Shown here in pieces: positions 1,123 to 16,036 of a stretch of DNA of 17,564 nucleotides. Source of the DNA: a virus (lineage: Duplodnaviria; Heunggongvirae; Uroviricota; Caudoviricetes); IMG/VR virus record IMGVR_UViG_646206259_000006, one strand, 5' to 3'. The notes beneath the pieces were generated by a model that made no database searches, was not told the origin of the DNA, and worked only from the letters and a program-made list of their open reading frames with translations. Each line of letters starts with the position of its first letter. Position 1 is the stretch's first letter. Position numbers and translations under genes: made by a program.

Positions 1123-1341
1123 ATGACAGCACACAAGCCAGCATCATCAGCTATCCCAACAACTGGATACATCCGTCGCTTTCGCATGCCGGAATTGCTA
1201 GGTGTTTCACTGCCTACTATTGATAGATGGGTTAAAAATGGCACTCTTCCACGCCCAGTGAAGCTAACAGATAACGTGACTGCGTTTGATGCGGTGGAAA
1301 TTAATAACTGGCTGGCAGAACGCCGCGGGAAGGTGGCCTGA
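1123..1341 (+). CDS. alpA: AlpA-family phage transcriptional regulator / excision-associated DNA-binding protein (72 aa)
   Basis: Small protein with the characteristic AlpA/prophage CP4-57 regulator HTH segment (RMPELLGVSLPTIDRWVKNGTLPRPVKL...NVTAFDAVEINNWL). GAGAGG RBS about 10 nt upstream. Stop overlaps the next start. Confidence 0.8.
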   Translation: MTAHKPASSAIPTTGYIRRFRMPELLGVSLPTIDRWVKNGTLPRPVKLTDNVTAFDAVEINNWLAERRGKVA

Positions 1342-1772
1342 TGGAAAAGAAAAACCGCCCATTACAGGCGGCTAATTCAGATATTCGCGTATCTGATATT
1401 ACGCCCCTTACAAAATCCCTTCAAGCACCAAAGCGCACACCGAAAAAGCATCGTGCCCGAGTCTATATGCTGCGTACTGGTATAGAGGGATGGACAGAAA
1501 ATGACATTCTTCGCTACTGCCGTCTGTCTTCTGGTCGTAACTATGCAACAGAGTTAGAACGCCAGCTTGGAATCACTCTGGAGCGTATCGACGAAAAGAA
1601 TCCTGATGGTATCGGAACACACCTTCGCTACCGTTTCTCCTGCCGTGGTGATGTTCTGAAAGTGATCACTCATGTTAACCATCTTGCGAACATAAATGAT
1701 CACAACGGACTTTCTCAGCAGGAAATTGCCGACATTCTGAAACTCTACCCGGACGCGTTTAACGCCGCCTAA
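1341..1772 (+). CDS. Hypothetical protein (143 aa), translationally coupled to alpA
   Basis: ATG overlaps the alpA TGA stop (TGATG). Basic N-terminus (PKRTPKKHRAR). No recognisable domain. Confidence 0.55.
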   Translation: MEKKNRPLQAANSDIRVSDITPLTKSLQAPKRTPKKHRARVYMLRTGIEGWTENDILRYCRLSSGRNYATELERQLGITLERIDEKNPDGIGTHLRYRFSCRGDVLKVITHVNHLANINDHNGLSQQEIADILKLYPDAFNAA

Positions 1773-1784
1773 CGGAGACTAAAA

Positions 1785-2618
1785 ATGAACATCGAAAAAA
1801 GCAGATTAATTTCTGAGGCCGCCCCTCATCTGAACGCCTCTCTGGGCACAATTAACGGTAATGAATTTGCCGCAATTGTCCCGGTTATTTCTGGTCATAT
1901 AGGTGGGCGTGAAACCAATATTGTTAGCGCAAAAGCGTTACACAAAGCGTTGGGCGTGGGAAAAGACTTCTCTACATGGATCACTGATCGCATCTCTGAA
2001 TATGACTTCACCATTGGGCACGATTACTCAGTCCATAAAACAATTTCCCCAAATTTGGGGAAAAGCCCGAATGGCGCGGCTTACAGCAAGATTAAGCACT
2101 CTGGCAGACCCGGCAAAGACTATCTGTTAAGTGTCGGAATGGCGAAAGAACTGGCAATGATCGAACGCAATGATCAGGGTCGCGCTATCCGTCGTTATTT
2201 CATCCAGTGCGAGGAAGAATTACAGCGTACCGTGCCTGAAATCGCCGCCCGCTATCGTCGCCAGCTAAAAGCCCGTATCAGTGCCGCAAACAACTTTAAG
2301 CCAATGTGCGATGCGCTGAACATGGCCCGTGCCGAGCAGGGGAAAACGACGCAGCAACACCACTACACAAACGAGAGCAATATGATTTCTCGTATCGTTC
2401 TTGGTGGGCTAACTGCTAAGCAGTGGGCGCGGATAAATGGCTATTCTGGCGAACCTCGCGACCATATGAACGCAGAACAGCTTGAGCACCTCTCATATCT
2501 CGAAAGCACCAATATCACGTTAATTGATATGGGCATGGAATATGAGCAGCGCAAAGGAGAACTCACCCACCTGTCGCAACGCTGGCTCGCCAAGCGTCTG
2601 GAGGCGCTCAATGTCTAA
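1785..2618 (+). CDS. Phage antirepressor-like protein (AntA/KilA-C-type), 277 aa
   Basis: GGAG RBS upstream. Sequence flavour of AntA-type antirepressor N-domain (…MIERNDQGRAIRRYFIQCEEEL…). Assignment is from memory of the family, not a search. Confidence 0.6.
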   Translation: MNIEKSRLISEAAPHLNASLGTINGNEFAAIVPVISGHIGGRETNIVSAKALHKALGVGKDFSTWITDRISEYDFTIGHDYSVHKTISPNLGKSPNGAAYSKIKHSGRPGKDYLLSVGMAKELAMIERNDQGRAIRRYFIQCEEELQRTVPEIAARYRRQLKARISAANNFKPMCDALNMARAEQGKTTQQHHYTNESNMISRIVLGGLTAKQWARINGYSGEPRDHMNAEQLEHLSYLESTNITLIDMGMEYEQRKGELTHLSQRWLAKRLEALNV

Positions 2619-2790
2619 GCCAACAGGAATACCACAACCACAAAAACGCTACAAAGATGCCCACGGAGCACTCGTTACTGTCGAAAGCGTGTCTCACAAC
2701 CGAGTGACGTTTTATCGCGACGGGTATCAATCGCCATGCGTACAACCGCTGGCGCGTTTCATGAAGGAGTTCGCGGAGGTTAACCAATGA
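2611..2790 (+). CDS. Small hypothetical protein (59 aa), possibly DUF4222-like
   Basis: ATG at 2611 preceded by GGAGG (2600-2604) and overlapping the upstream stop. The ORF-track call from 2524 is probably an over-extension. Confidence 0.5.
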   Translation: MSKPTGIPQPQKRYKDAHGALVTVESVSHNRVTFYRDGYQSPCVQPLARFMKEFAEVNQ

Positions 2791-3854
2791 TACCCGTCCA
2801 GAAGAAGACATTTTCACTGGCTGGTATGTCGCCAAAATCCAGCAATATGACAGCAAAGTCAGACATTAATACAGCAGATACAAGCAAAGTTTATCATTTG
2901 CTGGTGGTAGGAGCGGATGCCTTAACTATGTCAGAAATTACGGTCGATGGTGTTAGCGTTGAGAAGGTCAGCGGCTATGCCAGAGAATTTCTGGTCGTAG
3001 ATGGCTTTCTCTGCTCGTGTAGTGACTCCACAAAAACCTTCGTCCACGCGCGTGACGTTAACGAAATGAGCGCGATGTACTGTGCTTCTGGTTCTTCCAA
3101 TAGTGAGTTTTCGGAGTCCATAAAAAAGAGCTTGCCGTTATGCGGCAACACGGTTTATGGTTATAAGGCACCTCATAAAACGGGTGCCGGGATTGGCGTC
3201 CTGAAAATTCTGAAGGCGACATATGACGCGCCGAGCGTCTTTTTTTATGTCGTAGGTCTGACTCACCCATTTTTTGGGCGTTGGTGTATAATCCAGCGCC
3301 TTTGTCAATCAATGGTGGCTCAGGCGGGGGCTTCTTCGGAAGCGCCGGTATCCTTCAGAGCCGGTTACGCCAACCCTGTCTGGGCTACCACCAGCGAAAT
3401 TGGCGTTTCCGGTGGTAGCGTAACCTGCTATCTGAAGGAGGCTGCCACATGCTGGCTACTACCCCTACCCAAAAAACGCAATTTATCTGGATTATCGCCG
3501 CAGTTCGCCGCGATTGCCCGACAATTACCGCCAAAATTCATCATATTGCTGCCGAGTCTGAACGCGATGCTCGCCGTTCTCTGGTGCGCGATCACATCTG
3601 CTTTTTTGCTGGTCGTATCCGCATGGAGGTGGCACATGATTAAAAACTACGATGTGCATATGGATCCCCTCGAACGCACAAGCCAGATCATCACACTGAC
3701 AGAAGTGATTAACGACATTCTGGTGAGCAACTCTCCCTCACGAGACGAAAGACTGAAGGCGTTACTCGCGATATTGGATCTCGCCGTTCGTGACGTTCAT
3801 TTCCTGCTGGAAGGTGGCGAAATGCCAGTAAAAACGGGGGCAACCAATGAATAA
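2787..3854 (+). CDS. Hypothetical protein (355 aa as an uninterrupted ORF); 3' third may be a separate small gene starting at ATG 3636
   Basis: ATGA start/stop overlap with the upstream gene and GGAGG RBS at 2775-2779. No in-frame stop until 3854. The stretch about 3240-3636 is W/C/L-rich like a non-coding frame. ATG 3636 has its own GGAGG RBS. Confidence 0.45.
3449..3643 (+). CDS. Alternative small ORF (64 aa) nested out of frame inside the 2787..3854 ORF
   Basis: Strong RBS GAAGGAGG (3434-3441) 7 nt before the ATG. Protein-like composition. Frame opens after a TAG at 3416-3418. Cannot be real together with an intact long ORF unless genes overlap extensively. Confidence 0.3.
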   Translation: MLATTPTQKTQFIWIIAAVRRDCPTITAKIHHIAAESERDARRSLVRDHICFFAGRIRMEVAHD

Positions 3855-4041
3855 CTCAATTAATACCCCTCGCCTTACGTCCGCACTTCAATTAATCGAG
3901 CAAGCAGCGGCTGTCCTGGTTGCTGTCAGTCTTTCGGCTGAAGAAATGGACGCTACTGATGTCGTGGATGCGATTAAAGCGTGCTCATCTTTGGTTAACG
4001 ATGCCCGTGCAGAGCTGGTAATTCTTGGGGGTGAAAAATGA
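3847..4041 (+). CDS. Small hypothetical protein (64 aa)
   Basis: ATG overlaps the upstream stop (ATGAATAA). Part of a coupled chain of small ORFs. Confidence 0.5.
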   Translation: MNNSINTPRLTSALQLIEQAAAVLVAVSLSAEEMDATDVVDAIKACSSLVNDARAELVILGGEK

Positions 4042-4301
4042 ATATCAACTTAATTTATCGTCATCCGTGTGAGCTGGAAATTGAATCATTGCTGAGCCGT
4101 GAAGAGCCATATCCAGACACATTCACTCTTGCAGATCGCACGACTGAACGGCTTACCAGAGCGCGCACAGGTCTGGTTCATGTGATGAATGAGATTCTTC
4201 CATCGGTGGGAGGGGAACAGGCGACAGTAATCAATAGCTGGCTACAAAAAGTTACCTCCCTGATAGATATCAGTTTAATCGATGTGGAGAGTGCGAAATG
4301 A
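4038..4301 (+). CDS. Small hypothetical protein (87 aa)
   Basis: ATGA start/stop overlap with the upstream ORF. Confidence 0.5.
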   Translation: MNINLIYRHPCELEIESLLSREEPYPDTFTLADRTTERLTRARTGLVHVMNEILPSVGGEQATVINSWLQKVTSLIDISLIDVESAK

Positions 4302-4519
4302 CCAACATCCAGCTCATTGAAGCGCAATGTCGCATCGAACAGGTTCAGACTGTTTTAGGGTTCTGGCTTGAAGGGGCCAGCCCAAGCAACAGAGACAAGT
4401 TAATGATTGGCGCGGTTATGTCACTGCTCAATGGCGTACCAGAAGCTATTCAGGAAGCGGACGAATTGTTGGGCAAATATGAGTTACAGAATCATTCAGG
4501 CGAGGCGAAACATGAATAA
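4298..4519 (+). CDS. Small hypothetical protein (73 aa)
   Basis: ATGA start/stop overlap with the upstream ORF. GGAGAG upstream. Confidence 0.5.
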   Translation: MTNIQLIEAQCRIEQVQTVLGFWLEGASPSNRDKLMIGAVMSLLNGVPEAIQEADELLGKYELQNHSGEAKHE

Positions 4520-5114
4520 TTTCTTAACCTTCCATGCAGAAGCAACGCCTGACGGCGTAAACATCATGCACCGCAGCAACAATGGCATGACAGAACGCGT
4601 TGAGACCGTCTCATATATTGATGCCGTAAATCGTCTGGATGCCGGGGATTATGACGATAAACCAGATGAAGGCATGTTTATACATCTCGCTATTGCCAGT
4701 GGCGGCAACCAGGGATATTTCGATTACACATCACAGCATCACGTGATTATGTGGCGCTGGCTGATAGCAACAGCATTAATCAATGAAATGAGAAAGGAAA
4801 ACGGCACCGTCAGCATTATTGATGACAGTGGCAATCATTCCGTGGTTTCTGTTTATTCCAATGGCATCGTCGCCATGCCGCTGTATCCAGTAGCAGAGCG
4901 CCTCGCTATGGCAAACAACATTGAGGGCGCAATGATCGAGAAATATGGTGTTGATGTCGGAACAAAGAATGCCATCATTTTTTACAGCAACATGTTCGAT
5001 GTCGAACAGGGAACACTCACTTCGTTTGGGCGAGAAGTGCTTGCCGATCTTCACAACAGCTTTATTGCCGAACTAAACGAAAACGGCATCCCAGAAGCAC
5101 CAGTGACGCACTAA
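4512..5114 (+). CDS. Hypothetical protein (200 aa); alternative longer start at 4407
   Basis: ATG 4512 overlaps the upstream stop (ATGAATAA), matching the coupling pattern of the operon. The 4407 start would overlap the previous gene by about 110 nt. Confidence 0.55.
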   Translation: MNNFLTFHAEATPDGVNIMHRSNNGMTERVETVSYIDAVNRLDAGDYDDKPDEGMFIHLAIASGGNQGYFDYTSQHHVIMWRWLIATALINEMRKENGTVSIIDDSGNHSVVSVYSNGIVAMPLYPVAERLAMANNIEGAMIEKYGVDVGTKNAIIFYSNMFDVEQGTLTSFGREVLADLHNSFIAELNENGIPEAPVTH

Positions 5115-5126
5115 ACGGGGGCCAGA

Positions 5127-7478
5127 ATGCGAAACATTGATCTTATCCGTCAGGTTATCAGTGCGTCTGAAAACAACTGGCCTCATGTGCTGGGCTGCCT
5201 GAACATAAATGTCCCTGACTCTCCGCGCCGTCATGCTCCCTGCCCTGCATGTGGGGGCAAAGACCGATTCCGGTTCGATGACAACGGGCGCGGTAGCTTC
5301 ATCTGTAATCAGTGCGGCGCTGGTGATGGGCTGGATTTAATTAAACGCGTAAATAACTGCGACACAACAGAGGCGGCGCTGCTTGCCGCTGATGTTCTGG
5401 GTATTGATTACCGGACAACGGAAACACCAGAAGCCACCAGCCAGAAACGGGAACAACTGGAAACCGAGCGCCAGCGACGCGAACAGGAGCGCCTGAAAAG
5501 GGCAGAGAAGGACGAACAACAAAGACGGGATACGTTTTCCCGTCAGTTTGATGACATGCGCAGAAAGGCTGTAAACGGCAAATCTGATTATCTGGTTGCG
5601 AAAGGGGTAGGTGATTTTACATTCCCTGTGTTGCCCGATGGATCTCTGTTGCTGGCGCTGGTGGATAAATCCGGCGCAGTTACAGCAGCACAGACTATTA
5701 CCTCACATGGTGAAAAAAGACTCCTGACAGGTTCAGCAAAGCGAGGGGCATATCACGCCATAAACGCACAGAAACGACCTCACAGCATCATAATTGCTGA
5801 GGGGGTGGCTACCGCCCTGTCGTGCCATTTAATTCGCCCTGACGCAATGACAGTGGCAGCAATCGACGCTGGCAACCTGTTGCCAGTAGCGGAAGTCATG
5901 CGCAGAACATATCCACAGGCACAAATCATCATTGCCGCAGATAACGATCACCAGCAAGGAAACTCCGAAAGTGGAGGGATCAACACGGGGAAAGATGCCG
6001 CAGAGAGGGCCGCTATTTCCGTAGCTGGCTGGGTGTCTCTGCCACCGACTGACTATAAAGCCGACTGGAACGACTATCACCAACAACACGGGCTGGCGGC
6101 AGCCACAGCAGCATTTAAAGATTCGATGTACCAGCCACGGGGGAAAGGGGCGCAGGTGAAAAATCACAAACAGTCAGTCGGGGCGCTGAATGAGATCAGT
6201 TCTGGCGAGGTGTTAAGCGATGATGAAATTGCTGTCCTCGAAGAAATCAACCGGACGTTTACGCATGTCACCATCGGCGGGAAACACAAGGTGGTGTCGC
6301 TAAAGCCTTCTCAAACCGGCGGTGTATCGCACGTTTTCGAGGATTTATCACAATTTCAGCATTATTTTCATCATAAACCGAGAGTCGCCAGAAAGCTGGC
6401 GGGATCGGCGTGGCTGTCATGGAGTGGGAAGAACTACAAGCCAGGAGGCGTAGGATTTTATCCAGTACCAGACAAATGCCCTGACGATGTTTTTAATCTG
6501 TATGAGGGGCTGGCACTGGAACCAATTGAAGGAGATTGCACGGTATACCTTAATCACCTGTTGCAGGTTGTCTGTGCCGGTAATGAAGAGGCATACCAAT
6601 ATCTTATCCAGTGGATGGCGCACATTATCCAAAAGCCTGATGAAAAACCGTCCGTGGCAATCGTGATGAAATCTGTCCCGGGCACAGGGAAAGGCACAAC
6701 GGTTAAACCGCTGCTGCAAATACTGGGGCAGTACGCCGCCCACATTAACGGGGCGGGACATATTTCAGGGCGCTTCAATTCAATACTTGCTAACAAGCTA
6801 CTGGTATTTGCTGACGAAGTGACGATCCACAAGCCGTCTGAAGCTGACAGACTTAAAGCGATTATTAGCGAACCGACGTTTAACCTTGAGCGCAAGGGAA
6901 TTGATGCTGAACCAATGCCGAATTTTGCCCGGTTGATATTTGCCAGTAACAGCACACAGGTATTACAGGCAGGGATAAGAGAGCGCCGCTATCTCGTGCT
7001 TGAGCCATCTCCTGAAAAAGCACAGAGCCGGGAGTATTTTGATCGGCTGTACAGTTGGCTTAATGATGGCGGTGCCGCAAAGTTGCTTTGGCATCTTAAA
7101 GGGGTGGATCTCTCAGGTTTTGACCCTCAACGAGCGCCACAGACCGATGCCTTACGTGAAGAAATCTTGCTGGGGCTGTCTGGCGTTGAATTGTTTCTTT
7201 ATGGCGAGCTAATCAATGAACCTCCGTTTAATGGCGAAGTCCGTTTGTTTGCAAAGGATATGGTTAGTCGGTTTGTAGCGTGGTCGCTTGAGCGTGGGGA
7301 AAAGCTTAAAGAACCAGCTGCCAGATCACTACTGGGTAAATCACTTGCACAAATGGGGCTGGTGAAGCATGGAAGACCAGACCGAGGGAATGGCGTGTTC
7401 TACGAACTACCAGAGGTCGGAGTTCTACAGGCTGCGTTTGCCCGTCTGATCGGTATGGGGGGTTATGATGTTTTTTAA
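5127..7478 (+). CDS. P4-alpha-like primase-helicase (783 aa)
   Basis: N-terminal CxxC…CxxC zinc-binding motif (CPACGG…CNQCGAG). TOPRIM-like segment (IIIAEGVATALS, IIIAADNDHQ). C-terminal P-loop (VPGTGKGT) and DExx-like box (LLVFADEV). Iteron cluster immediately downstream. Confidence 0.85.
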   Translation: MRNIDLIRQVISASENNWPHVLGCLNINVPDSPRRHAPCPACGGKDRFRFDDNGRGSFICNQCGAGDGLDLIKRVNNCDTTEAALLAADVLGIDYRTTETPEATSQKREQLETERQRREQERLKRAEKDEQQRRDTFSRQFDDMRRKAVNGKSDYLVAKGVGDFTFPVLPDGSLLLALVDKSGAVTAAQTITSHGEKRLLTGSAKRGAYHAINAQKRPHSIIIAEGVATALSCHLIRPDAMTVAAIDAGNLLPVAEVMRRTYPQAQIIIAADNDHQQGNSESGGINTGKDAAERAAISVAGWVSLPPTDYKADWNDYHQQHGLAAATAAFKDSMYQPRGKGAQVKNHKQSVGALNEISSGEVLSDDEIAVLEEINRTFTHVTIGGKHKVVSLKPSQTGGVSHVFEDLSQFQHYFHHKPRVARKLAGSAWLSWSGKNYKPGGVGFYPVPDKCPDDVFNLYEGLALEPIEGDCTVYLNHLLQVVCAGNEEAYQYLIQWMAHIIQKPDEKPSVAIVMKSVPGTGKGTTVKPLLQILGQYAAHINGAGHISGRFNSILANKLLVFADEVTIHKPSEADRLKAIISEPTFNLERKGIDAEPMPNFARLIFASNSTQVLQAGIRERRYLVLEPSPEKAQSREYFDRLYSWLNDGGAAKLLWHLKGVDLSGFDPQRAPQTDALREEILLGLSGVELFLYGELINEPPFNGEVRLFAKDMVSRFVAWSLERGEKLKEPAARSLLGKSLAQMGLVKHGRPDRGNGVFYELPEVGVLQAAFARLIGMGGYDVF

Positions 7479-7507
7479 TATAGTCTTTTTACAAGAAGAT
7501 CGTTTTT

Positions 7508-7611
7508 ACCTGTACCACCTATACCACTTTGCTAATTCAGCATTAAAAACAATGCGTTATAGTGGTACAGGTCAATATCTTACCTATACCAGACCTGTAC
7601 CACCTATACCA
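7508..7611. repeat. Iteron cluster 1 (putative origin): 19-bp direct repeat ACCTGTACCACCTATACCA at 7508-7526 and 7593-7611 with an inverted TGGTACAGGT copy between them
   Basis: Direct reading. Lies immediately 3' of the primase-helicase gene in an AT-rich context, the usual position of the ori in P4/PICI-type elements. Confidence 0.7.
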
Positions 7612-7654
7612 TTAACAAACGCATTTCTTCTGGCTGGCTGAGAGGGAACAACCA

Positions 7655-7885
7655 ATGATGAGCACACCATTTTACAAAGTGCGCCAGTTAGCTTCTTCCT
7701 CTGGCTGGCAGCTACGGTTTGAGGGGCGTTCAGACTGGCTACCCATTGCGGCATGGGCGAATGTTGAAATGTGTATTGACGGCGATACCGTTGAAATCAT
7801 TATTCCCTGCGTGGCAAGTCGGGACGGCTGTATAGAGCCAACAGATATGGCAGCAGAAATCAGAGAGGTAAAACATGAACAATAA
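7655..7885 (+). CDS. Hypothetical protein (76 aa)
   Basis: AGAGGGA RBS upstream of ATG. Stop overlaps the next start. Confidence 0.5.
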   Translation: MMSTPFYKVRQLASSSGWQLRFEGRSDWLPIAAWANVEMCIDGDTVEIIIPCVASRDGCIEPTDMAAEIREVKHEQ

Positions 7886-8612
7886 CTATTGCATACTGCA
7901 GGGAATGACCAGAACGGAGCGCGAAGAATTAAAAAGTTTCGCTACACAGTGCGGGAATGCTGGCGACATCCAAAGTCTGGAACGCACTTTAATTATGATT
8001 GCGCACTGGATGCGCCAGGGGCAAAGAGTTTCATTTACTGAATATGCCAGCCAGTGGACAGAGGCACAGCGCGAACGGAGCGACGGTAATCACTCAACAC
8101 CCGAAATGGCGAAGCAATGGCCTTTCAGTGGTAAACGCTGTATCAGTCCCGGTGGTTCAGATTATTACCCTGCTGGTGTGGGAGATGAGCCATGTTGTGA
8201 CGAGACTGAAATCCGCCACGCAGTGACAGTAATTACCGCTGAATACCCACAATTTAACCTTGACGGACTGGCGCTCCACAACCGGAATGCGGACTGGGAA
8301 AACCCGCTTGATAACCCGTCATTTATCGTATCGGCGAAAAGCTGCCTGAGATGGATCAGAGACAACGGGATGAGTAATGCCCAGATTGAGAGCTTCCCGC
8401 AGGATAACCCCACATCTGACACGTTGAAGCATGAAGTGGAGCGATATAACCAGATAAACCACCAGCACAGTGATCACCCGCACTATATCCCCAACGGAGC
8501 ATTTATTGCGGCGATGGTGGCAAGCGGCTACAAGGTTAAGCCAGCGGGAAGAATGAACGCATTTTTCAATATTTCAAAAAAGGGATTATGTGCTGCTATG
8601 GGTAAAAATTAA
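7875..8612 (+). CDS. Hypothetical protein (245 aa)
   Basis: GAGAGG RBS. ATG overlaps the upstream stop. No recognisable domain. Sits between the two iteron clusters. Confidence 0.55.
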   Translation: MNNNYCILQGMTRTEREELKSFATQCGNAGDIQSLERTLIMIAHWMRQGQRVSFTEYASQWTEAQRERSDGNHSTPEMAKQWPFSGKRCISPGGSDYYPAGVGDEPCCDETEIRHAVTVITAEYPQFNLDGLALHNRNADWENPLDNPSFIVSAKSCLRWIRDNGMSNAQIESFPQDNPTSDTLKHEVERYNQINHQHSDHPHYIPNGAFIAAMVASGYKVKPAGRMNAFFNISKKGLCAAMGKN

Positions 8613-8617
8613 ATAAA

Positions 8618-8721
8618 TGGTACAGGTCTGTACAGGTGGGGAGAGGTCATTTTTACCCACCTGTACCACCTGCAGGCCGCGCCACACAAGGGTTTGTGAC
8701 ATGGTGGTACAGGTGGTACAG
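8618..8721. repeat. Iteron cluster 2 (crr-like): at least four copies of the GGTACAGG/CCTGTACC core in both orientations
   Basis: Direct reading: TGGTACAGGT 8618-8627, CTGTACAGGTGG 8628-8639, CCACCTGTACCACC 8657-8670, GGTGGTACAGGTGGTACAG 8703-8721. Same core as cluster 1. Confidence 0.65.
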
Positions 8722-9085
8722 CAAAAACAGCGATTTTCTTTATAAGGTATGTTTTGCTCATCTGGCAGACGGAGGTATTCGCTGCGGTTTGGCACATAGC
8801 CCAGAACAGCAAAGAGTTTTACGAGACTTTTGTAAAATCCAGTGTACAAGGGCGTGACGTTTTTGAAGGTGAGCACTACGAAATTTTCGTAGTTCAAAAA
8901 ATAGCCTCTGAGATGTTGTTATGCCTGTTCAGCAAACCATCCGCATAGCTGATCGCGAATCAAATTACCAATGGAGCCAGAAGCAAGGGCAGAACTGGAA
9001 AGCGCCTGCCGTGAAGAGTAATGCGACTCCATAAATATAGTTTTTAGAGTCCATAAAAAAACTGTCAAAACCTGACATACAGAAC

Positions 9086-9119
9086 GATGCCACCAGCTAC
9101 TGAACGGTGGCATTTTTTT
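9086..9119 (+). terminator. Rho-independent terminator (8-bp stem, 11-nt loop, T7 run)
   Basis: ATGCCACC (9087-9094) pairs with GGTGGCAT (9106-9113), followed by TTTTTTT. Separates the replication module from the downstream cargo operon. Confidence 0.6.
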
Positions 9120-9216
9120 GTGCTATTTGTTTCATATTTTGCAATCACAATGATGAATGTTGCGTTTTATGAAACTATAATGACTGTTGTTTTATACAGT
9201 TCTAAGGGGGGCGTTA

Positions 9217-9389
9217 TGGCTATTTCAGTAAAGCCAGTATTGATAAGTGAGAAGCAAATGGAAGCGATAAAGAAAATTCAGGAGGAGCAGCGTAAAAAAT
9301 CAGAGGTAGGAGTTGCGCCAACGATCCACGAAATTGCTCGGGGATTAATGGATAAGGCGCTGGCTTACACTTTAACTGGACGTGGGTAA
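9217..9389 (+). CDS. Small hypothetical protein (57 aa), possibly ribbon-helix-helix-like DNA-binding
   Basis: AAGGGGGG RBS 5 nt upstream. Perfect -10 TATAAT at 9176-9181. The ORF-track call from 9087 is likely an over-extension. The RHH guess is from the beta-strand-then-helix pattern only. Confidence 0.45.
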
Positions 9390-9393
9390 ATTT

Positions 9394-10737
9394 ATGGCTA
9401 CGTGGCAACAGGGTATTAATTCTGGTGGTTTTCTGGCTGGCATCGGTGCGCAAAATGAGAATGCGCCAAAGGCAAGCGACATTAACGCAACGCTTGGTCT
9501 GATCCGCGAAAACAATGAACTGGCTCGCTCAGGTGCAAATAACGTTGCTCTGACAGGTCTTCGTGGTCTGGCTGGAGTTGCTGACATTTATAAGCAGCAG
9601 CAACAGCAGGAACGTAAAGCGGCATTCCAGAAAGGTTATGCAGATGCTTATGCGTCCGGTGACAGGGAGCAGATGCGTAATCTTATTACAGCATTCCCAG
9701 AAGAGTTTGAGGAAGTCCGTAAAGGGATGAGTTATGTCGATGATGCTCAAAGGGATGATTATGGCAATCTGGCGCTCAAAGCACAGGTAGCCTCATCGCT
9801 TGGTCAGGGCGCATTTGGCAGGTTCATGATGGATAATGAGCAGGAGATGCGTCGTTTAGGTATCCCTCCAGAAACTATTGCTGAAATGCAGGTTAATGAC
9901 CCGCAGGGCTTCCAGCATTTCGCAGGTAATCTGGCGCTGTTTTCTCTCGGTCATGAGAAGTATTTCGATATCAAAGATCAAATGGAAGGTCGTCGACTTG
10001 AGCAAGGGCGACTGGATGAAAGTATGCGTCAGGCTGACATGGAGAACGCGAGAGGATGGGCAAATATCCAGAACGCTCAACTAGACAGGGCTCAGCGAGC
10101 ACAAATTCACTCAGATGAGATGGGATTGAAGCTAATGGAGCTGGGGCAAAAAGGTAAGCCGTCAGCAGACTTAATTAAGGGATTAAATTCTGACATTACC
10201 AATTTTGGCAAAAATTATAACTCTGTCAGAGCGGCGGCAAACTCTCTGCAAGCCCTTAGCAAGGTAAATACTGGCGCTGCCCAACTTGGGATTATCTTCA
10301 ACTACATGAAATCTCTTGACCCGCAGTCAGTCGTTCGTGAAGGCGAACAGGTTCAGGTAATGCGGTCTGATGGCATATGGGGACAAATCAAAGGATACAT
10401 AGACCAGCTTAATGCTGGAAACGGCCTGTCGCAGGAGGCAAAGGATAACATTGTTAACGCCGCAAAAATCAACGCCAATGCTATGGGGCAGCAGTTTAAC
10501 CAGCAGGTTGACGAGTATCTCGATACATATGGAGAAACTATTCCTCAGGGGCTAAGAAAAAGCCTTGAAAGAAGGAAAGCGAAGCTATTTGACGATGTTT
10601 CCGGGCAGCCTACATCACAGGCTGGCACTGGACAGGCAAAAGCGGCAACCGGAGGAATATCAGAAGGCGCAACGGCAACCAACCCTAAAACTGGTCAGAA
10701 AATCATTTACAGGAACGGAAAATGGCAGCAAATGTAA
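9394..10737 (+). CDS. Hypothetical large protein (447 aa from ATG 9394; alternative GTG start 9382), Q/N/A-rich and predicted largely helical
   Basis: Long ORF with coding-like composition. No catalytic motif seen (no P-loop, HNH or PD-(D/E)xK). Low-complexity poly-Q stretch (QQQQQ). Flavour of phage internal/ejection or scaffold-type proteins; function unknown. Confidence 0.6.
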   Translation: MATWQQGINSGGFLAGIGAQNENAPKASDINATLGLIRENNELARSGANNVALTGLRGLAGVADIYKQQQQQERKAAFQKGYADAYASGDREQMRNLITAFPEEFEEVRKGMSYVDDAQRDDYGNLALKAQVASSLGQGAFGRFMMDNEQEMRRLGIPPETIAEMQVNDPQGFQHFAGNLALFSLGHEKYFDIKDQMEGRRLEQGRLDESMRQADMENARGWANIQNAQLDRAQRAQIHSDEMGLKLMELGQKGKPSADLIKGLNSDITNFGKNYNSVRAAANSLQALSKVNTGAAQLGIIFNYMKSLDPQSVVREGEQVQVMRSDGIWGQIKGYIDQLNAGNGLSQEAKDNIVNAAKINANAMGQQFNQQVDEYLDTYGETIPQGLRKSLERRKAKLFDDVSGQPTSQAGTGQAKAATGGISEGATATNPKTGQKIIYRNGKWQQM

Positions 10738-12839
10738 TCTTACCGGAAGGTTTTGTGCTCGATGAACAACCTGATAACTCACAGTTTCCTGATAGTTCAC
10801 AGCTTCCTGATGGTTTTGTGCTTGATGCCCAACCAGAACAGCAGCAATCACCTTTGGTTTCACCAGAGGAAAATTCCAGACAGGAAAATGTTGTTAATAA
10901 TGCTAACGGTTTCGACCGTTTTATGTATGGCGTTCTCAGTGGATTGATGGATGTTGGTAAAGGTGTTGGCCTGTTTCAGGATATGACACCAGAAGAGCAA
11001 GCCGCAATTCAGTCTCTACAGCAGAAGTTAGCGGCAAAACCATCAACCGCACAAGATGTTGGTGAGTTCGTTGGACAAGCAGCGCCATTTGTTAGTGGTG
11101 GTGGGATTATTTCTCAGGTTCCCAAAGGGGCGGCAAGACTGGCTGCCGCCGTAGGGCTTGGTGCTGGAGAAGGGGCTATTGTAGCCAATGGAACAAATAG
11201 CGATGTTGCTTCCGGCGCTGCTATTGGCGCTGTGGCTGGCCCTGTAGCCGAACTTGCTGGCCCTGCAATTAATAAAATAGCTGGGAAATTAACCAAGAAG
11301 AATGTTTCTTCGATTCCAGATATTGAGGGGATTACTCCTGCCGAAGAGAAAATTCGTAAGTTATCTGCACAAGGCAACCCAAATCTTGCCTCTTCGCTTG
11401 AAGGGCTAGATCTAAAACCTCAGAAAGAAATTGTTGAGGCTGCAAATAGGCTTCATGTTGATTCAGTTCTTCCTTCTCATTTATCAGGAAATGAGCAATA
11501 CCAAGCTGTAGAGCAAGCCCTAAAGTCACGGACAGGATCAGCGTTAAAAGCTCAAGAAGATAAAGCAATAAGCGAATTAGCCTCTAGTGCTGACAAGATA
11601 ATCGATGATGTTGCTGGTGCGCCAGATGCGTTAGCTATGAGCGAAAAATATATTTATCAGATAAATAGTAGAATGGAAGCACTAAAAAACCGTAGTGATC
11701 AGTTATATAAACGTGTTGATTCCGCTCTATCACCAAGAACAAAAGTCGAAGCAAATAACACAAGCACTATGCTGGAAAAAATCGCTGATGATTTAGGAGG
11801 GTGGGATAATCTTGACCCAATAGAAAAGCGAGTTTTTACAGCAATAAACCCCGGCCCAGATAGCATCCTAACGTATGCAAATTTAAACAGGCAAAGGCGT
11901 TTAGTTGGTGATGCCCTAAATAAAAAGCAGGGGCCATACAAAGATGCTGATAAAGAAGCGCTATCAAGACTATATGGAGCTTTAGCTGAAGACCAAAAAT
12001 CTGTCTTATCCAATACTGGATACTTGCGAGATTTCGAAGTCGCACAACGCCTTGTAGCTATGAGAAAAAACTTAGAAAGGCAAATGGTAAATCTTCGCGG
12101 GAAAACACTTAATGGGGATATAGCGTATAAAGTAACGAATTCTCTTCAATCTATGGCAAAAGGTGATGCGAGAGGGTTTCGTGAGATTATGCAAAATACT
12201 CCATCAAGAACATTGCGAAGGGAGCTAGTAGGAACAGCATTAAGAGATATGCTTTCCTCTGGGAAGCGTGGGGCCGACTTTAATCCATCTGGCTTTGCAG
12301 ATTGGTGGCAAAACTTGCAACACAGTGGACAGCTAAAGACTTTGGCTGAACATTTGCCAAAAGAAACAATGAGCGGACTATATGATGTATACAAAGTTGC
12401 CAGAGCAATAAAAAATGCTAAAGCGCATGAAATATCTACTGGTAAGCTGAATGAGTTTGTAAACAGATTTAATCGGGTAACAGCTCCATACGAACTAGCA
12501 GCAAAACACATTCAAAAAATAGGCACGATGGTAGGCGCTCATTTTGGATCGCTTGGAGCCATTGCTGGGGCTGATATTGGAGCAAGATTGGCGAGTAAAG
12601 CTCGATTAGCTGGTGGAGCAGGGGCGGCTGATGCTGCGGATAAATTAATTGCCTCGCCAGCCTTCCAGAGCGCAGTAAAAAATCTACACGGAAAAGCGCC
12701 TGGGCACATTGTTGATTCACGTATCAGGCGCTCCCCTCAATGGAAGAGTTTTTTTAACTCTCTTCCTGAACAGGAAAAACGGACCATCGCCAGACTGGGC
12801 ATCATTACTTGGCTATCTAATGATCCAGATAATGACTAG
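10722..12839 (+). CDS. Hypothetical large protein (705 aa) with N-terminal tandem peptide repeat, Gly/Ala-rich segments and a long helical middle
   Basis: Overlaps the upstream gene by 16 nt, so co-transcribed. N-terminal repeat PEGFVLDEQP / PDGFVLDAQP. GxxxG-rich segment (GLGAGEGAIVANG…AIGAVAGPVAELAGPA) and C-terminal Gly/Ala hydrophobic stretch (GAHFGSLGAIAGADIGARLA). No enzymatic motif recognised. Confidence 0.6.
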   Translation: MAANVILPEGFVLDEQPDNSQFPDSSQLPDGFVLDAQPEQQQSPLVSPEENSRQENVVNNANGFDRFMYGVLSGLMDVGKGVGLFQDMTPEEQAAIQSLQQKLAAKPSTAQDVGEFVGQAAPFVSGGGIISQVPKGAARLAAAVGLGAGEGAIVANGTNSDVASGAAIGAVAGPVAELAGPAINKIAGKLTKKNVSSIPDIEGITPAEEKIRKLSAQGNPNLASSLEGLDLKPQKEIVEAANRLHVDSVLPSHLSGNEQYQAVEQALKSRTGSALKAQEDKAISELASSADKIIDDVAGAPDALAMSEKYIYQINSRMEALKNRSDQLYKRVDSALSPRTKVEANNTSTMLEKIADDLGGWDNLDPIEKRVFTAINPGPDSILTYANLNRQRRLVGDALNKKQGPYKDADKEALSRLYGALAEDQKSVLSNTGYLRDFEVAQRLVAMRKNLERQMVNLRGKTLNGDIAYKVTNSLQSMAKGDARGFREIMQNTPSRTLRRELVGTALRDMLSSGKRGADFNPSGFADWWQNLQHSGQLKTLAEHLPKETMSGLYDVYKVARAIKNAKAHEISTGKLNEFVNRFNRVTAPYELAAKHIQKIGTMVGAHFGSLGAIAGADIGARLASKARLAGGAGAADAADKLIASPAFQSAVKNLHGKAPGHIVDSRIRRSPQWKSFFNSLPEQEKRTIARLGIITWLSNDPDND

Positions 12840-12858
12840 TGAATGGCCACGGATGGCC

Positions 12859-13284
12859 TCAATCTTTATTCTTTGAAATAGAGTCATTGATCTTTTCGAA
12901 ACACCAATGAAATCCACAAAAGAGAGCTACACCAATATAACAATACAAAACTATCAACCACCTTTCAGTGTCCGAAGGGTAAAAAACATCAATTACATAA
13001 GCAACACCAATTGGTATTAATGCTAGTAATAACATCGACACAGGACGTACAAACTTCTGAACTATATCAATTTTATAGAACCACAAGGCGGTATGTTTAA
13101 TGATATAAGTAAAGATGGCTGCGCCAATAATGGCAAAAAACACCATCGATAAAGTCGGGTATAACTTTGCGACAATTAAACCCAACAAAATAATTATAAC
13201 TGCCTGCCCCCTCACACCAACCCTCCCTTTAGCTTTGTTTAGAATGGCAATCATCATATATCCAAGACATGGCATTTGGTACAT
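12859..13284 (-). CDS. Small integral membrane protein (141 aa, about 4 predicted TM helices); function unknown
   Basis: Four hydrophobic stretches of about 18-20 aa (AVIIILLGLIVAKL, MVFFAIIGAAIFTYII, SMLLLALIPIGVAYVI, LIVLYCYIGVALFCGF). Convergent with the 705-aa gene, separated by 19 bp containing a small GGCCA-cgga-TGGCC hairpin. Confidence 0.5.
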   Translation of the reverse strand: MYQMPCLGYMMIAILNKAKGRVGVRGQAVIIILLGLIVAKLYPTLSMVFFAIIGAAIFTYIIKHTALWFYKIDIVQKFVRPVSMLLLALIPIGVAYVIDVFYPSDTERWLIVLYCYIGVALFCGFHWCFEKINDSISKNKD

Positions 13285-13375
13285 AGCTTGGGTCGGGATT
13301 TCAAATCCGCTCCCCGTTGATGGGGCCGTTACAGTACGCGCATATCCGCTTTATGTGAAACAGGAAGATTTTTCT

Positions 13376-13476
13376 GATATCACTGCCACAGCAAAACACC
13401 AATTTCGTGACCAGTACGCGCGCGAGGGGTATCAGTTGCAAAAATTTTGCAACCACGTCCGACCAGTACGCACACG
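13376..13476. repeat. Non-coding repeat block: two copies of an alternating-CG motif (CCAGTACGCGCGCG / CCAGTACGCACACG) flanking the inverted repeat TTGCAAAA-A-TTTTGCAA (13436-13452)
   Basis: Direct reading. A related roughly 55-bp sequence recurs at 16285-16338 and a shorter copy at 13688-13711. Confidence 0.5.
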
Positions 13477-13687
13477 ATGGCGGGGGATACCATGAAACTG
13501 TTCTCTACACGAGACAGAGTGGTGGTGATGTGTTGATTATCGGCGTATATGCGCACAGGACGCGCTATGACGATGTTTTATGCGGGTACACCAATCACAT
13601 GTATCTGGTGTGATAAATCGCGTTACATGACCTCTCATGTTGTGCTGGTGGTTATCACGACTTTCTGAATCTGGCCTTTGCCTGATA

Positions 13688-13711
13688 TTTTGCGACAAGT
13701 ACGCGCGCGTA
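13688..13711. repeat. Third copy of the CG-alternating motif, containing the perfect palindrome TACGCGCGCGTA
   Basis: Direct reading: TTTGCGACAAGTACGCGCGCGTAGC. Confidence 0.45.
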
Positions 13712-14165
13712 GCATCGAAATTATCGGATGGCGTATGCTGCTGGCAATATGAAGACCGATAGTATTAACCGAAAAGCGAAAGAGCTTCTCGATAACGGCA
13801 AGATCGCGGCAAGGGTTGCTGAATTTGAACAGATGTAAGGAATGGAACCAGAGAGGCGCTGGCGGCGAAAAAACGCCACTACCAGCGGATAAATGTGCCA
13901 ATCTTTTAGTTGGAAAAACAGCATAGAAGGCTACCATGATATGTAAAGATTGCTCAAAAAGTTATTATCAACGTCTAATTTCATTAAAAATGCTCCTTAT
14001 TGCTGTTAAAAATCAAAGAAATCATTTAAAAACCGTTCAACACCCCCCATCTGTCTTCAAAAAGATTTGTGTTGGTTAGTGACTAGTTACCTTTTATATG
14101 TAAATATATCCACAAGGGAAGTGGTGAAAATTTCGACTATTTAACCATAATCAAAGGAGGTGAAC

Positions 14166-14648
14166 ATGTCGAATACATCTGCACATGCCCTCTTGAAAGA
14201 TATCTGGGGCGATAGGAAATTCCCGGTTGATCCAGTATGGATTGCCAATGAGTTAGGGTTGGATGTTGTTGAAACCACGCTTGATGATGATGTTTCAGGC
14301 GCATTGCTGAAAGAGCCAGAACAAGATCCAGTAATCATACTCAATCGTAATGATAGTAACGTGCGCAAACGATTTACGTGTGCGCATGAGTTAGGGCATT
14401 ACGTCAAACGAACTGAGAACGGTCAGCCACTTGAATATGAGTTTGTTGATTACCGCGGAAAACTGGCAAGCCAAGGTGTAGACAGCGAAGAAATATTCGC
14501 CAATAACTTTGCAGCATGTCTTCTCATGCCAGAAAAAGAGGTTCGACGCCTCAACAATGCAGGATATGCACCAGTAATGATGGCTTCCTATTTTGGTGTA
14601 TCCGATGATGCTATACGTTATCGCCTAAAGAATTTAGGGCTTCGATGA
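14166..14648 (+). CDS. ImmA/IrrE-family (DUF955-type) zinc metallopeptidase (160 aa)
   Basis: AGGAGG RBS (14155-14160). HEXXH zinc-binding motif (CAHELGHY) in the context typical of ImmA/IrrE peptidases. No HTH domain detected in the protein itself. Confidence 0.7.
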   Translation: MSNTSAHALLKDIWGDRKFPVDPVWIANELGLDVVETTLDDDVSGALLKEPEQDPVIILNRNDSNVRKRFTCAHELGHYVKRTENGQPLEYEFVDYRGKLASQGVDSEEIFANNFAACLLMPEKEVRRLNNAGYAPVMMASYFGVSDDAIRYRLKNLGLR

Positions 14649-14651
14649 GTA

Positions 14652-15029
14652 ATGACGTCTAGATCTTACGCTATATCTGAAAAACTAAAGCAAGCGGCAA
14701 GACAAGCCAGAGGTGAACCAGCCTCTGGCTCATCTCCATCAGCAAAAACCCTCACACATCTAAATGATAAGGATCCAGCCAAAGCCCATCAGCGTGCAAA
14801 AACAAAAGATTTAAAAACAGACACAAAACTGAAAAAAATGTTTGCTCGGTGGTTTATCGGCATTCTGATAGGCCAGCTATTAGTTATGAATGGGATTTTT
14901 GTCCTTATTGGAGCAAAACTGCTCCATTTTAGTGATTTCGTTATAAACCTATTTATGGGGGGAACCCTCGCTGAAGTCTTTGGCATTGTTTTAGTGATGG
15001 CACGCTACCTGTTCTCCAAGCACGTCTAA
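14652..15029 (+). CDS. Small membrane protein (125 aa): basic hydrophilic N-terminus plus two C-terminal TM helices; coupled to the peptidase gene
   Basis: ATG 3 nt after the peptidase stop. Hydrophobic stretches FIGILIGQLLVMNGIFVLIGAKLL and LFMGGTLAEVFGIVLVMARYLF. Confidence 0.5.
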   Translation: MTSRSYAISEKLKQAARQARGEPASGSSPSAKTLTHLNDKDPAKAHQRAKTKDLKTDTKLKKMFARWFIGILIGQLLVMNGIFVLIGAKLLHFSDFVINLFMGGTLAEVFGIVLVMARYLFSKHV

Positions 15030-15045
15030 AAATCAAAATATAGGG

Positions 15046-15489
15046 CTACATTCTTAGAGCCACTGATAACTTTTCAGCATTGCTTCCCTGACGCTTCCAC
15101 GCGCTGTAAATGTCTTTATCCCATGCTTTACCAGCTTTTGTTTGATAGCCTGCTTCATTGAGCCGTTCCGCTATCACACGCCCATTATCAAATCCCTGTT
15201 GGATGGTATCGGCAATGATCTTTATAACTGCCGTTTCGTTATATGGCTTTGGTGGGATGTTCGGCTTTCCGGCAATAAGCGACGCAGCGGCTTTTTCCAT
15301 GCGCTCCACCAGCCCAAGCATTCGTGAATCAATAGACTTTTCCGGCTGTCCCAGCTTCATGCGAATCGCATCAACAAGCCAGGAGGTTTTATCCCCTCCA
15401 GAAGCGAGAACAGACCGATTAAACTCATCCTGCAATTCAGATGGGATGCGGAACGCGATCAGATTAGATTTGCTCATTGCAAAGACCAT
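15046..15489 (-). CDS. Putative DNA-binding regulator (147 aa): ribbon-helix-helix-like N-terminus with a serine-recombinase 'Recombinase'-domain-like C-terminal segment
   Basis: N-terminus NLIAFRIPSELQDEF…SWLVDAIRMKL resembles the RHH fold (Arc/MetJ/CopG). C-terminus IAERLNEAGYQTKAGKAWDKDIYSAWKRQ resembles the LNxxGxxTxxGxxW motif of the recombinase DNA-binding domain. Start could be ATG 15489 or 15477; neither has a clear SD. Confidence 0.5.
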   Translation of the reverse strand: MVFAMSKSNLIAFRIPSELQDEFNRSVLASGGDKTSWLVDAIRMKLGQPEKSIDSRMLGLVERMEKAAASLIAGKPNIPPKPYNETAVIKIIADTIQQGFDNGRVIAERLNEAGYQTKAGKAWDKDIYSAWKRQGSNAEKLSVALRM

Positions 15490-15590
15490 ATCAGTGAGTA
15501 ATATCCATACAGTATACCACTGTATAACACTGTTATACGCTCAAATATCAGCCAGAAAATAACGGACCAATCACAAAGCTATCGCTGTGT

Positions 15591-15735
15591 TGTTGGTTCA
15601 GAGCTGGGCTGTGTTGGTTCAAAATGAGTTGATGTTGGTTCAACATTTCAGAAAAAACACAATAAAAACAACGATCTTTACAAATTAAACCAACTGAACC
15701 AACTGAACCAACACCTTTTTGCTTATCTATATAAT
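15591..15735. promoter_or_regulatory. Divergent promoter/operator region: three direct TGTTGGTTCA repeats at 21-bp phasing (15591, 15612, 15633), two tandem inverted copies TGAACCAAC (15695-15712), and a perfect -10 TATAAT (15730-15735) for the plus-strand gene
   Basis: Direct reading. The inverted copies sit where the -35 of the PerC-like gene promoter would be. A related half-site TGTTGGTTAG occurs near 14071-14080 upstream of the peptidase gene. Confidence 0.55.
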
Positions 15736-15748
15736 CTGAGAGGCAGAA

Positions 15749-16036
15749 ATGATAAGGGACAGGAAAGCTGAAGAGCTGGAGTCAAAAGGGCTATACCGGA
15801 GAGCTGCCGCACGATGGGCAGAAGTCATGATGCTGGCAGATGGCGATAAAGAACGTGAACATGCAGCAAACAGACGCTCTGAATGTATCCGTAAGGCGGC
15901 ACGCCCACCAGCAACTACAGACAGATTCGGAGATTTAAGACAGGCAGTTAAGCGGACTCATTCGGCTCTTGGTATGGATGAGGAAGCGAGAGGGTACTTC
16001 AGGCGTTATCGCGATAAAGATTGCCAGAGACAGTAA
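15749..16036 (+). CDS. PerC-family transcriptional regulator-like protein (95 aa)
   Basis: N-terminal AEELESKGLYRRAAARWAEVM matches the conserved PerC/Pch N-terminus as remembered. GAGAGG RBS. Confidence 0.55.
   Translation: MIRDRKAEELESKGLYRRAAARWAEVMMLADGDKEREHAANRRSECIRKAARPPATTDRFGDLRQAVKRTHSALGMDEEARGYFRRYRDKDCQRQ

Follow-up and report, generated by a model that had tools for sequence, protein, structure and literature searches.

The replication origins described for Gram-negative phage-inducible chromosomal islands (PICIs) lie 3′ of the primase gene, pri, with two sets of iterons around an AT-rich region, and the pri-ori segment of one such island, EcCICFT073, drove replication of a plasmid (Fillol-Salom et al. 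2018, PMC6092414). EcCIMP1, a PICI of Escherichia coli MP1, is mobilized by the P22-like phage Kapi1, and its helper-dependent excision, replication and packaging have been shown experimentally (PMC11773190). The origins of PICIs and of other phage satellites have so far been described as compact sites 3′ of pri. Here we analyse a 17,564-bp stretch of viral DNA (Caudoviricetes; IMG/VR record IMGVR_UViG_646206259_000006), called the window throughout, which carries an EcCIMP1-like Gram-negative PICI. In this island the gene for the presumed initiator, a 783-aa primase-helicase (5127..7478, + strand), is followed by a cluster of short repeats, two small genes, orf76 and orf245, and a second cluster. 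Comparison with related loci makes it quite likely that a single iteron-type origin, served by the upstream DUF5906 primase-helicase, has the two clusters as its inverted arms, and that the two genes were inserted between them. What the locus appears to add to the already known PICI iteron origin is therefore a matter of architecture, namely a dyad-symmetric, two-arm arrangement that has been split.

The unit of repetition is a 9-bp iteron, GGTAYAGGT, which occurs in both orientations and often as tandem pairs with a 9-bp period. A preliminary description of this DNA had reported a core shared by the two clusters in both orientations, and this observation is confirmed: the exact core GGTACAGG/CCTGTACC occurs six times in the window (at 7509, 7564, 7594, 8619, 8660 and 8706), always within the clusters, against an expectation of 0.28, and none of 200 shuffles reached that count. 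When up to one mismatch is allowed, GGTAYAGGT has 12 matches in the whole window, 10 of them in the clusters (3.2 expected). The first cluster, referred to here as arm 1 (7508..7610, − strand), begins 30 nt past the stop codon of the primase-helicase and contains six exact iterons, arranged as a tandem pair (7508-7516(−) and 7517-7525(−)), a spacer (7526-7563), an inverted iteron (7564-7572(+)), a further iteron (7582-7590(−)) and a second tandem pair (7593-7601(−) and 7602-7610(−)). The 19-bp direct repeat described previously, ACCTGTACCACCTATACCA, is exact at both 7508-7526 and 7593-7611. The second cluster, arm 2 (8619..8723, + strand), has six positions of which three are exact: a pair at 8619-8637, made up of an exact iteron (8619-8627(+)) and one with a single mismatch (8629-8637(+)), is followed by a degenerate in-register position (8639-8647(+), GGGAGAGGT), an exact inverted iteron (8659-8667(−)), a conserved, GC-rich spacer of 38 bp (8668-8705) and a tandem pair at 8706-8723, in which an exact iteron (8706-8714(+)) precedes a second degenerate position (8715-8723(+), GGTACAGCA). 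The earlier count of at least four copies at 8618-8721 was therefore right, if slightly conservative.

The outer end of each arm consists of a tandem iteron pair and an A/T tract, and a stability scan placed the DNA immediately outside both arms among the least stable of the region. Outside arm 1, the AT-rich and easily melted flank (7463..7507) overlaps the stop codon of the primase-helicase gene and ends in a T5 tract; its 30-mer at 7463-7492 has the lowest stability within 7400-8900 and ranks in the top 1% of the window, and 7479-7507 is 76% A+T. Outside arm 2 there is a conserved tail (8724..8741, + strand), in which an A-tract is followed by GCGATTTT and then by DNA with 67% A+T; GCAAAAAnnGCGATTTT is found again past the last iteron in L004, L006, L020, L021 and Xenorhabdus (L numbers denote individual loci among the relatives introduced below). 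A scan of 7400-9100 against Rfam returned no known RNA, and no DnaA boxes were found near the clusters, their number being at chance level.

Homologues of the helicase part of the protein were collected and 80 genomic loci, together with several contigs, were read. The reverse complement of arm 1 can be aligned with arm 2 along approximately 125 bp, all six iteron positions being in register, and the same inverted alignment between arms holds in Salmonella (L006) and Rahnella (L023). Arm 1 was matched by its nhmmer profile with an E-value of 3e-25 and, in reciprocal searches, the profile of each arm found the other arm on the opposite strand, with E-values of 1e-12 and 8e-10, the latter for the arm-1 profile on arm 2. 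Moreover, when arms 1 and 2 of the window are concatenated, they are colinear with the contiguous origins that L021-L025 have directly 3′ of the helicase gene, with the iterons conserved and the spacers diverged; contiguous origins of this kind, approximately 260 bp long, are those of Buttiauxella, Rahnella, Hafnia and others. The motifs of arm 1 are likewise kept and its spacers variable in L004-L007, L012 and L021-L025, and arm 2 is conserved in L004, L006, L007 and L021-L025, so that multiple short copies with conserved motifs and variable spacers, as is usual for an iteron origin, are found across relatives. Because arm 2 is the reverse complement of arm 1 with its six positions in register, the pair would form one dyad-symmetric origin; this origin appears to be built from a six-iteron unit repeated in inverted orientation, with orf76 and orf245 inserted at its dyad centre.

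The distance between the arms varies widely among the relatives. The arms are contiguous or separated by tens of base pairs in L014, L015, L019-L027, L031, L032, L035, L038, L040 and L087 (9-31 bp in the first two), and lie approximately 290 bp apart in Xenorhabdus, with orf76 the sole gene between them. The separation is approximately 1.0 kb in the window and in L004, L006, L007 and L090 (Raoultella, Salmonella, Buttiauxella). In L088, a capsid-forming PICI on an IMG/VR contig (the same element as L041 of Erwinia typographi), the arms, at 733-863 and 9440-9569, are 8.6 kb apart and enclose genes for capsid, prohead protease, portal, HNH, TerS and TerL; arm 2 of this island is at its very end, adjoining a host phosphoribosyltransferase gene. 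In L008 (Xenorhabdus ehlersii; positions 1686-1787 and 6290-6340) the arms flank the primase gene; arm 1 is truncated where it follows the helicase stop codon but is present as an intact copy 2.2 kb upstream of the start codon of the primase. The system is thus bipartite, as was first proposed, with parts that can lie kilobases apart. The further proposal that these parts are an ori and a crr-like site (crr, the cis-replication region of satellite P4) holds for the existence of a two-part iteron system but not for a difference in kind between the parts, which are inverted copies of one six-iteron unit and are colinear with a single origin of approximately 260 bp in many relatives.

It might nevertheless be argued that the two arms divide the work unequally, such that arm 1 is the complete origin and arm 2 an auxiliary site, whether a crr-like enhancer, a site for copy-number control or handcuffing, or a redundant second origin. 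In arm 1 all six iterons are perfect and the spacer is 71% A+T, in contrast to the degenerate positions and GC-rich spacer of arm 2, and this first arm stays beside the helicase stop codon in almost all relatives, whereas arm 2 moves or is missing (L088, L092, L012). P4, moreover, reportedly requires both ori and crr for its replication, and the two share one iteron type in the annotation of GenBank X51522. On the other hand, the arms of the window are inverted homologues of each other, alike in their six-position geometry, and no stretch of the origin is more strongly conserved than GGTACAGGTGGTACAGCAAAA, which falls in arm 2. An arm-2-like unit is also found alone beside the helicase gene in L018, L034, L039 and L042, and in L008 the displaced arm is arm 1. 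We therefore regard this unequal division as unlikely, although it stays a live rival, because arm 1 fits the published PICI layout and one island is without arm 2.

Several observations weigh against a two-arm origin and should be set beside those in its favour. In the Enterobacter island L092, where arm 1 is accompanied by orf76 and orf245, no arm 2 was present in the 10 kb on either side, and L012 has none within 4 kb, so that either arm 2 is dispensable or these islands are defective. Arm 1, with iteron pairs on either side of its 38-bp, AT-rich spacer, already fits the published layout of a PICI origin by itself, and arm 2 could accordingly be auxiliary. Few GGTAYAG cores are present in L028, L029, L033 and L042, despite helicase identities above 42%, and the agreement between six iterons and a hexameric helicase is so far numerology.

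The connection of the arms with the primase-helicase is best seen in a natural exchange of the replication cassette. The protein comprises a Zn-ribbon and Toprim primase, a helicase domain of Pfam family DUF5906 and a predicted winged-helix C-terminus. When the window is compared with the sister island L003 (Ec-050), the primase is identical over aa 1-214 (window 5127-5769, L003 6062-6704) and approximately 70% identical over aa 215-340, and the remainder is unrelated, being of the DUF5906 type in the window and the DUF927 type in L003. The identity of the first 214 codons in otherwise unrelated proteins indicates that intragenic recombination has joined one primase domain to two helicase families. 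The left recombination zone (5769..6161, + strand) accordingly lies inside the gene, at approximately codons 215-345, and the right breakpoint, taken from the L003 alignment, lies at 8806..8813, where homology with islands carrying other replicases resumes. In both L003 and EcCIMP1 the backbone is the same and aa 1-214 of the primase are identical to those of the window, and the helicase, both arms, orf76 and orf245 are replaced, up to window position ~8812, by a cassette with the DUF927 helicase, which is followed by a compact iteron origin of its own, with three forward copies of GTTGGTTCA, an AT-rich stretch and three inverted copies. In approximately 350 E. coli genomes the match to this region starts only at position 8813, and the replication cassette of the window is present in 130 of 5,426 complete E. 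coli genomes. The swap indicates that the two clusters and the two small genes travel as one unit with the helicase and the C-terminal part of the protein, and the identity of the iteron would thus go with the C-terminal two-thirds of the protein rather than with its primase domain. It also bears out, as far as inheritance can, the earlier view of the clusters as iterons of the replicon of the adjacent primase-helicase.

The same association is seen over greater evolutionary distances. In many of the relatives a 7-mer is repeated 5-11 times within the 450 nt past the helicase stop codon, compared with approximately 0.05 copies expected for any given 7-mer. The core is GGTAYAG in most relatives with at least 42% helicase identity, which include members of the Enterobacterales, Xenorhabdus, Methylococcales and Alteromonadales, but differs at 38% identity or below, where TGGAACA, GGGGACA, GGTCATA, CGGAACA, TGGACCG, GTCTAGG and GTCCTAG are found; the origins of these distant relatives are likewise dyad-symmetric, with triplets at 9-bp spacing and approximately 10-12 sites. 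The comparison of iteron cores that the preliminary description had suggested thus reveals, over the 80 loci, a motif that changes with the helicase lineage, in addition to being co-inherited and exchanged with the initiator gene in L003 and EcCIMP1. The distinct replicon specificity that had been inferred has to be qualified, in that the iteron is shared beyond this satellite: its core recurs with most DUF5906 helicases, in the orders named, down to approximately 42% identity.

Two other explanations of the repeats can be judged from these comparisons. The clusters could be transcriptional operators without a role in replication, at which the helicase, AlpA or another island protein controls orf76-orf245 and the downstream operon for ejection proteins; both clusters are indeed in intergenic gaps upstream of co-oriented genes, and autoregulation is frequent among iteron-binding initiators. 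We consider this improbable, because the same arms, contiguous with each other, follow helicase genes in unrelated contexts from which orf76 and orf245 are absent, the motif tracks the helicase rather than the neighbouring genes, and the cassette swap takes both clusters together with the helicase and leaves the downstream operon in place. In addition, a promoter and terminator scan found nothing in either cluster, including no predicted σ70-like promoter, and promoter-like sites were not enriched (one, compared with 2.8 expected). That orf76 or orf245, rather than the primase-helicase, encodes the protein that binds the repeats might be suggested by the location of these genes exactly between the arms and their co-inheritance with them in enteric islands, and also by weak winged-helix-like Foldseek matches of the C-terminal part of orf245. 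These matches, however, are not significant (E > 1, probability ≤ 0.25), orf245 lies outside the arms in Xenorhabdus, and neither gene is present in relatives with the same iterons (L014, L015, L019-L027, L087 and L088). The retention of the same iterons by relatives that have the helicase without either gene argues that the binder is the helicase, and binding by orf76 or orf245 therefore seems most improbable.

Structural predictions for the primase-helicase are in keeping with such a role. The helicase domain is of the NrS-1-like superfamily 3 (SF3) type, the NrS-1 helicase being the nearest solved structure. The C-terminus, from approximately aa 700 to 783, is predicted to be a winged helix, and a model of aa 630-783 (mean predicted local distance difference test score, pLDDT, 88) ends in a helix-helix-strand-strand module, for which the best structural neighbours are the winged-helix domains of Cdt1-C, ORC/Cdc6, ROQ and MarR/SarA. 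The modelled fold is compatible with recognition of the origin by the C-terminus, as in the α protein of P4, although no match, and no direct similarity, to the solved origin-binding domain of α (PDB 1KA8) was obtained.

The resemblance of the locus to P4 should be viewed in this light. Both encode a fused primase-helicase with an N-terminal Zn-ribbon/Toprim primase, and both have two separate cis sites that share one short iteron, present in both orientations and frequently in tandem pairs at 9-bp spacing, with one of the sites directly 3′ of the initiator gene; the island also carries the C4 and isrK immunity RNAs of the P4 type. The preliminary description had gone further and seen in the locus a mirror of the P4 arrangement. 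The protein does not belong to the P4 family, however, as it scores 20.4 bits against TIGR01613 (primase_Cterm), for which the cut-off is 108.7, and in a tblastn comparison with α only aa 7-337, the N-terminal primase, could be aligned (33% identity), the helicase and C-terminus being of the DUF5906 type. Nor is the positional likeness close because, in the annotation of GenBank X51522, from which we took the P4 layout, crr lies directly 3′ of the α gene and ori is 4.7 kb away on its other side. The crr of P4 consists of two direct 120-bp repeats, each with five type I iterons, in a layout unlike that of ori, whereas the sites of the island are inverted copies of one unit and are contiguous in relatives. 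As had been noted, the iteron itself is different: the P4 type I iteron, TGTTCACC, has a single occurrence in the window (14159), a chance-level count, and this one lies outside the clusters. The parallel with ori and crr is therefore a useful analogy of function and layout and not one of homology or family membership.

The PICI origin of the EcCICFT073 type is a closer likeness, since it too lies directly 3′ of pri in an island with int, alpA and pri in one direction, and its iterons are in both orientations around AT-rich DNA. It differs in being described as one compact site, where the window has two inverted six-iteron units split by two genes. We did not find GGTAYAGGT as text in PMC6092414 or its supplements, the latter being without iteron sequences; a text search of the literature for the iteron sequence returned only unrelated primers, and a preprint on capsid-forming PICIs makes no mention of an origin. 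Among complete E. coli genomes the arm-2 sequence is absent from all except the 130 with the cassette of the window, and strain CFT073, if it is in the collection, must have a different origin. Further afield, the SV40 large T antigen and the papillomavirus E1 protein are SF3 initiators with a DNA-binding domain of their own, which act on inverted arrays of short sites and assemble as two oppositely oriented hexamers, features that the locus may share by analogy only. The origins of these viruses are compact (<100 bp) and are not known to work when split by kilobases.

A mechanism that would account for these features can be outlined as follows. Each arm is a unit of approximately 105-125 bp, with six 9-bp positions and an A/T tract and easily melted DNA on its outside. 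Its iterons would be bound by the winged helices at the C-termini of the helicase subunits; binding and origin function are both predicted from the sequence and its relatives. One SF3 helicase ring might then be assembled on each arm, in opposite orientations, the adjacent or flanking AT-rich DNA would melt, and synthesis would be primed by the fused Zn-ribbon/Toprim domain. The two arms might be independent or might be joined by protein-mediated looping. Looping of this kind is the proposal made for P4 ori and crr. Insertions at the dyad centre would be tolerated because either arm would form a complete loading site by itself, and an insertion that leaves each arm intact would explain the repeated capture of genes at this position.

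The comparison with EcCIMP1 suggests that this plan may be a wider one. EcCIMP1 shares with the window a backbone of AlpA, AntA, DUF4222, Ash, small ORFs, primase, P22-type ejection proteins and PerC, with 89-96% nucleotide identity over the shared parts, but has the DUF927 helicase cassette and GTTGGTTCA iterons, and is integrated at tRNA-Thr, whereas the island of the window lies between yicC and dinD. Its replicon follows the same plan, with two inverted six-iteron units 8.4 kb apart, compared with 6.1 kb in L003. We tentatively suggest, as a possibility that we would not yet favour, that PICIs have a 'split origin', in which each of two inverted six-iteron units loads one ring of the SF3-type primase-helicase of the island, a permissive dyad centre has taken up cargo time and again, ranging from a 76-aa gene to a capsid-terminase module, and the arms cooperate or act alone over 0.3-8.6 kb; the unrelated DUF927 replicon of EcCIMP1 would share the plan, and an orphan DUF927-type unit in the window, described below, could admit the replicase of a co-resident sister island.

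Were the two inverted arms to prove separable, the island would offer a simple bacterial system for the loading of an SF3 helicase-primase, in which the loading of one ring per arm and the distance over which half-origins cooperate could be addressed, a question left open for the ori and crr of P4. GGTAYAGGT arms also provide a signature for annotating the origins of DUF5906 replicons across the Gammaproteobacteria, and the C-terminal part of the replicase together with the origin constitutes one exchangeable cassette that moves between islands at different integration sites.

Of the two genes between the arms, orf76 (7655..7885, + strand) encodes a 76-aa orphan protein at the dyad centre and follows the helicase gene in L004-L013 and L017. 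It has only 12 relatives in the databases, all unnamed, and gave no match in Pfam, PHROG, NCBIfam or PADLOC; its constant position at the dyad centre in one clade makes it a candidate accessory gene for replication. The second gene, orf245 (7875..8612, + strand), shares 11 nt with the end of orf76 and encodes a 245-aa orphan protein with 29 relatives, also unnamed, and with no match in Pfam, PHROGs, NCBIfam or PADLOC. A confident model of this protein (pLDDT 88) gave no fold match in the PDB with E < 1. The gene lies between the arms in enteric islands, and in Xenorhabdus, when present, is found outside them.

The island itself could be placed by comparison with E. coli PA45B, to which stretches 1-1400 and 7300-9000 of the window are 100% identical and in which an island of approximately 18 kb is annotated between yicC and dinD. 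The genes run in the order integrase (immediately outside the window on its left, from PA45B), AlpA (PF05930, 1123-1341), AntA, DUF4222, Ash, small ORFs, primase-helicase, cluster 1, orf76, orf245, cluster 2, P22-type ejection proteins and PerC, with int, alpA and pri in one direction, all on the + strand, as in PICIs. The isrK RNA (3168-3245, Rfam 67.8 bits) and the C4 antisense RNA (3308-3395, 79.9 bits) are on the + strand inside the Ash-family gene (2787-3854), and an arrangement of immunity RNAs of the P4 CI/seqA type has already been noted for some Gram-negative PICIs (PMC10111431). The region 9382-12839 encodes homologues of the P22 injectosome and ejection proteins (PF16928, then a 705-aa DNA-transfer-like protein); an island without capsid genes but with P22-type ejection homologues matches EcCIMP1, the helper of which is a P22-like phage.

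Just upstream of perC, at 15575-15728, another complete unit resembling an origin is built on a different iteron; in this unit, copies of GTTGGTTCA at 15592, 15613 and 15634 are separated by approximately 43 bp of AT-rich DNA from inverted copies at 15686, 15695 and 15704. It is an inverted paralogue of the origin behind the DUF927 helicase, and L003 and EcCIMP1 carry both units; as the cognate DUF927 helicase is absent from the window, the unit would here be an orphan origin arm. Immediately to the right of the replication cassette, 8813-9113 is a conserved backbone segment common to approximately 490 E. coli genomes whatever their replicase type, with no annotated gene in several of them. 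The segment ends at a terminator-like hairpin (9096-9111), and short stretches of it resemble DNA of Klebsiella and Shewanella phages; it could be a small gene or an RNA.

The same replication region is also present in enterotoxigenic E. coli H10407 (L001), in an island next to the pao genes. Colinearity of the window with H10407 is restricted to 1331-13718 and 15067-15829; the two differ over 1-1330 and 13719-15066, which hold the AlpA and left-end module and accessory modules. The occurrence of the same cassette with different modules and at different sites, between yicC and dinD in PA45B and next to the pao genes in H10407, shows modular mosaicism among these islands.

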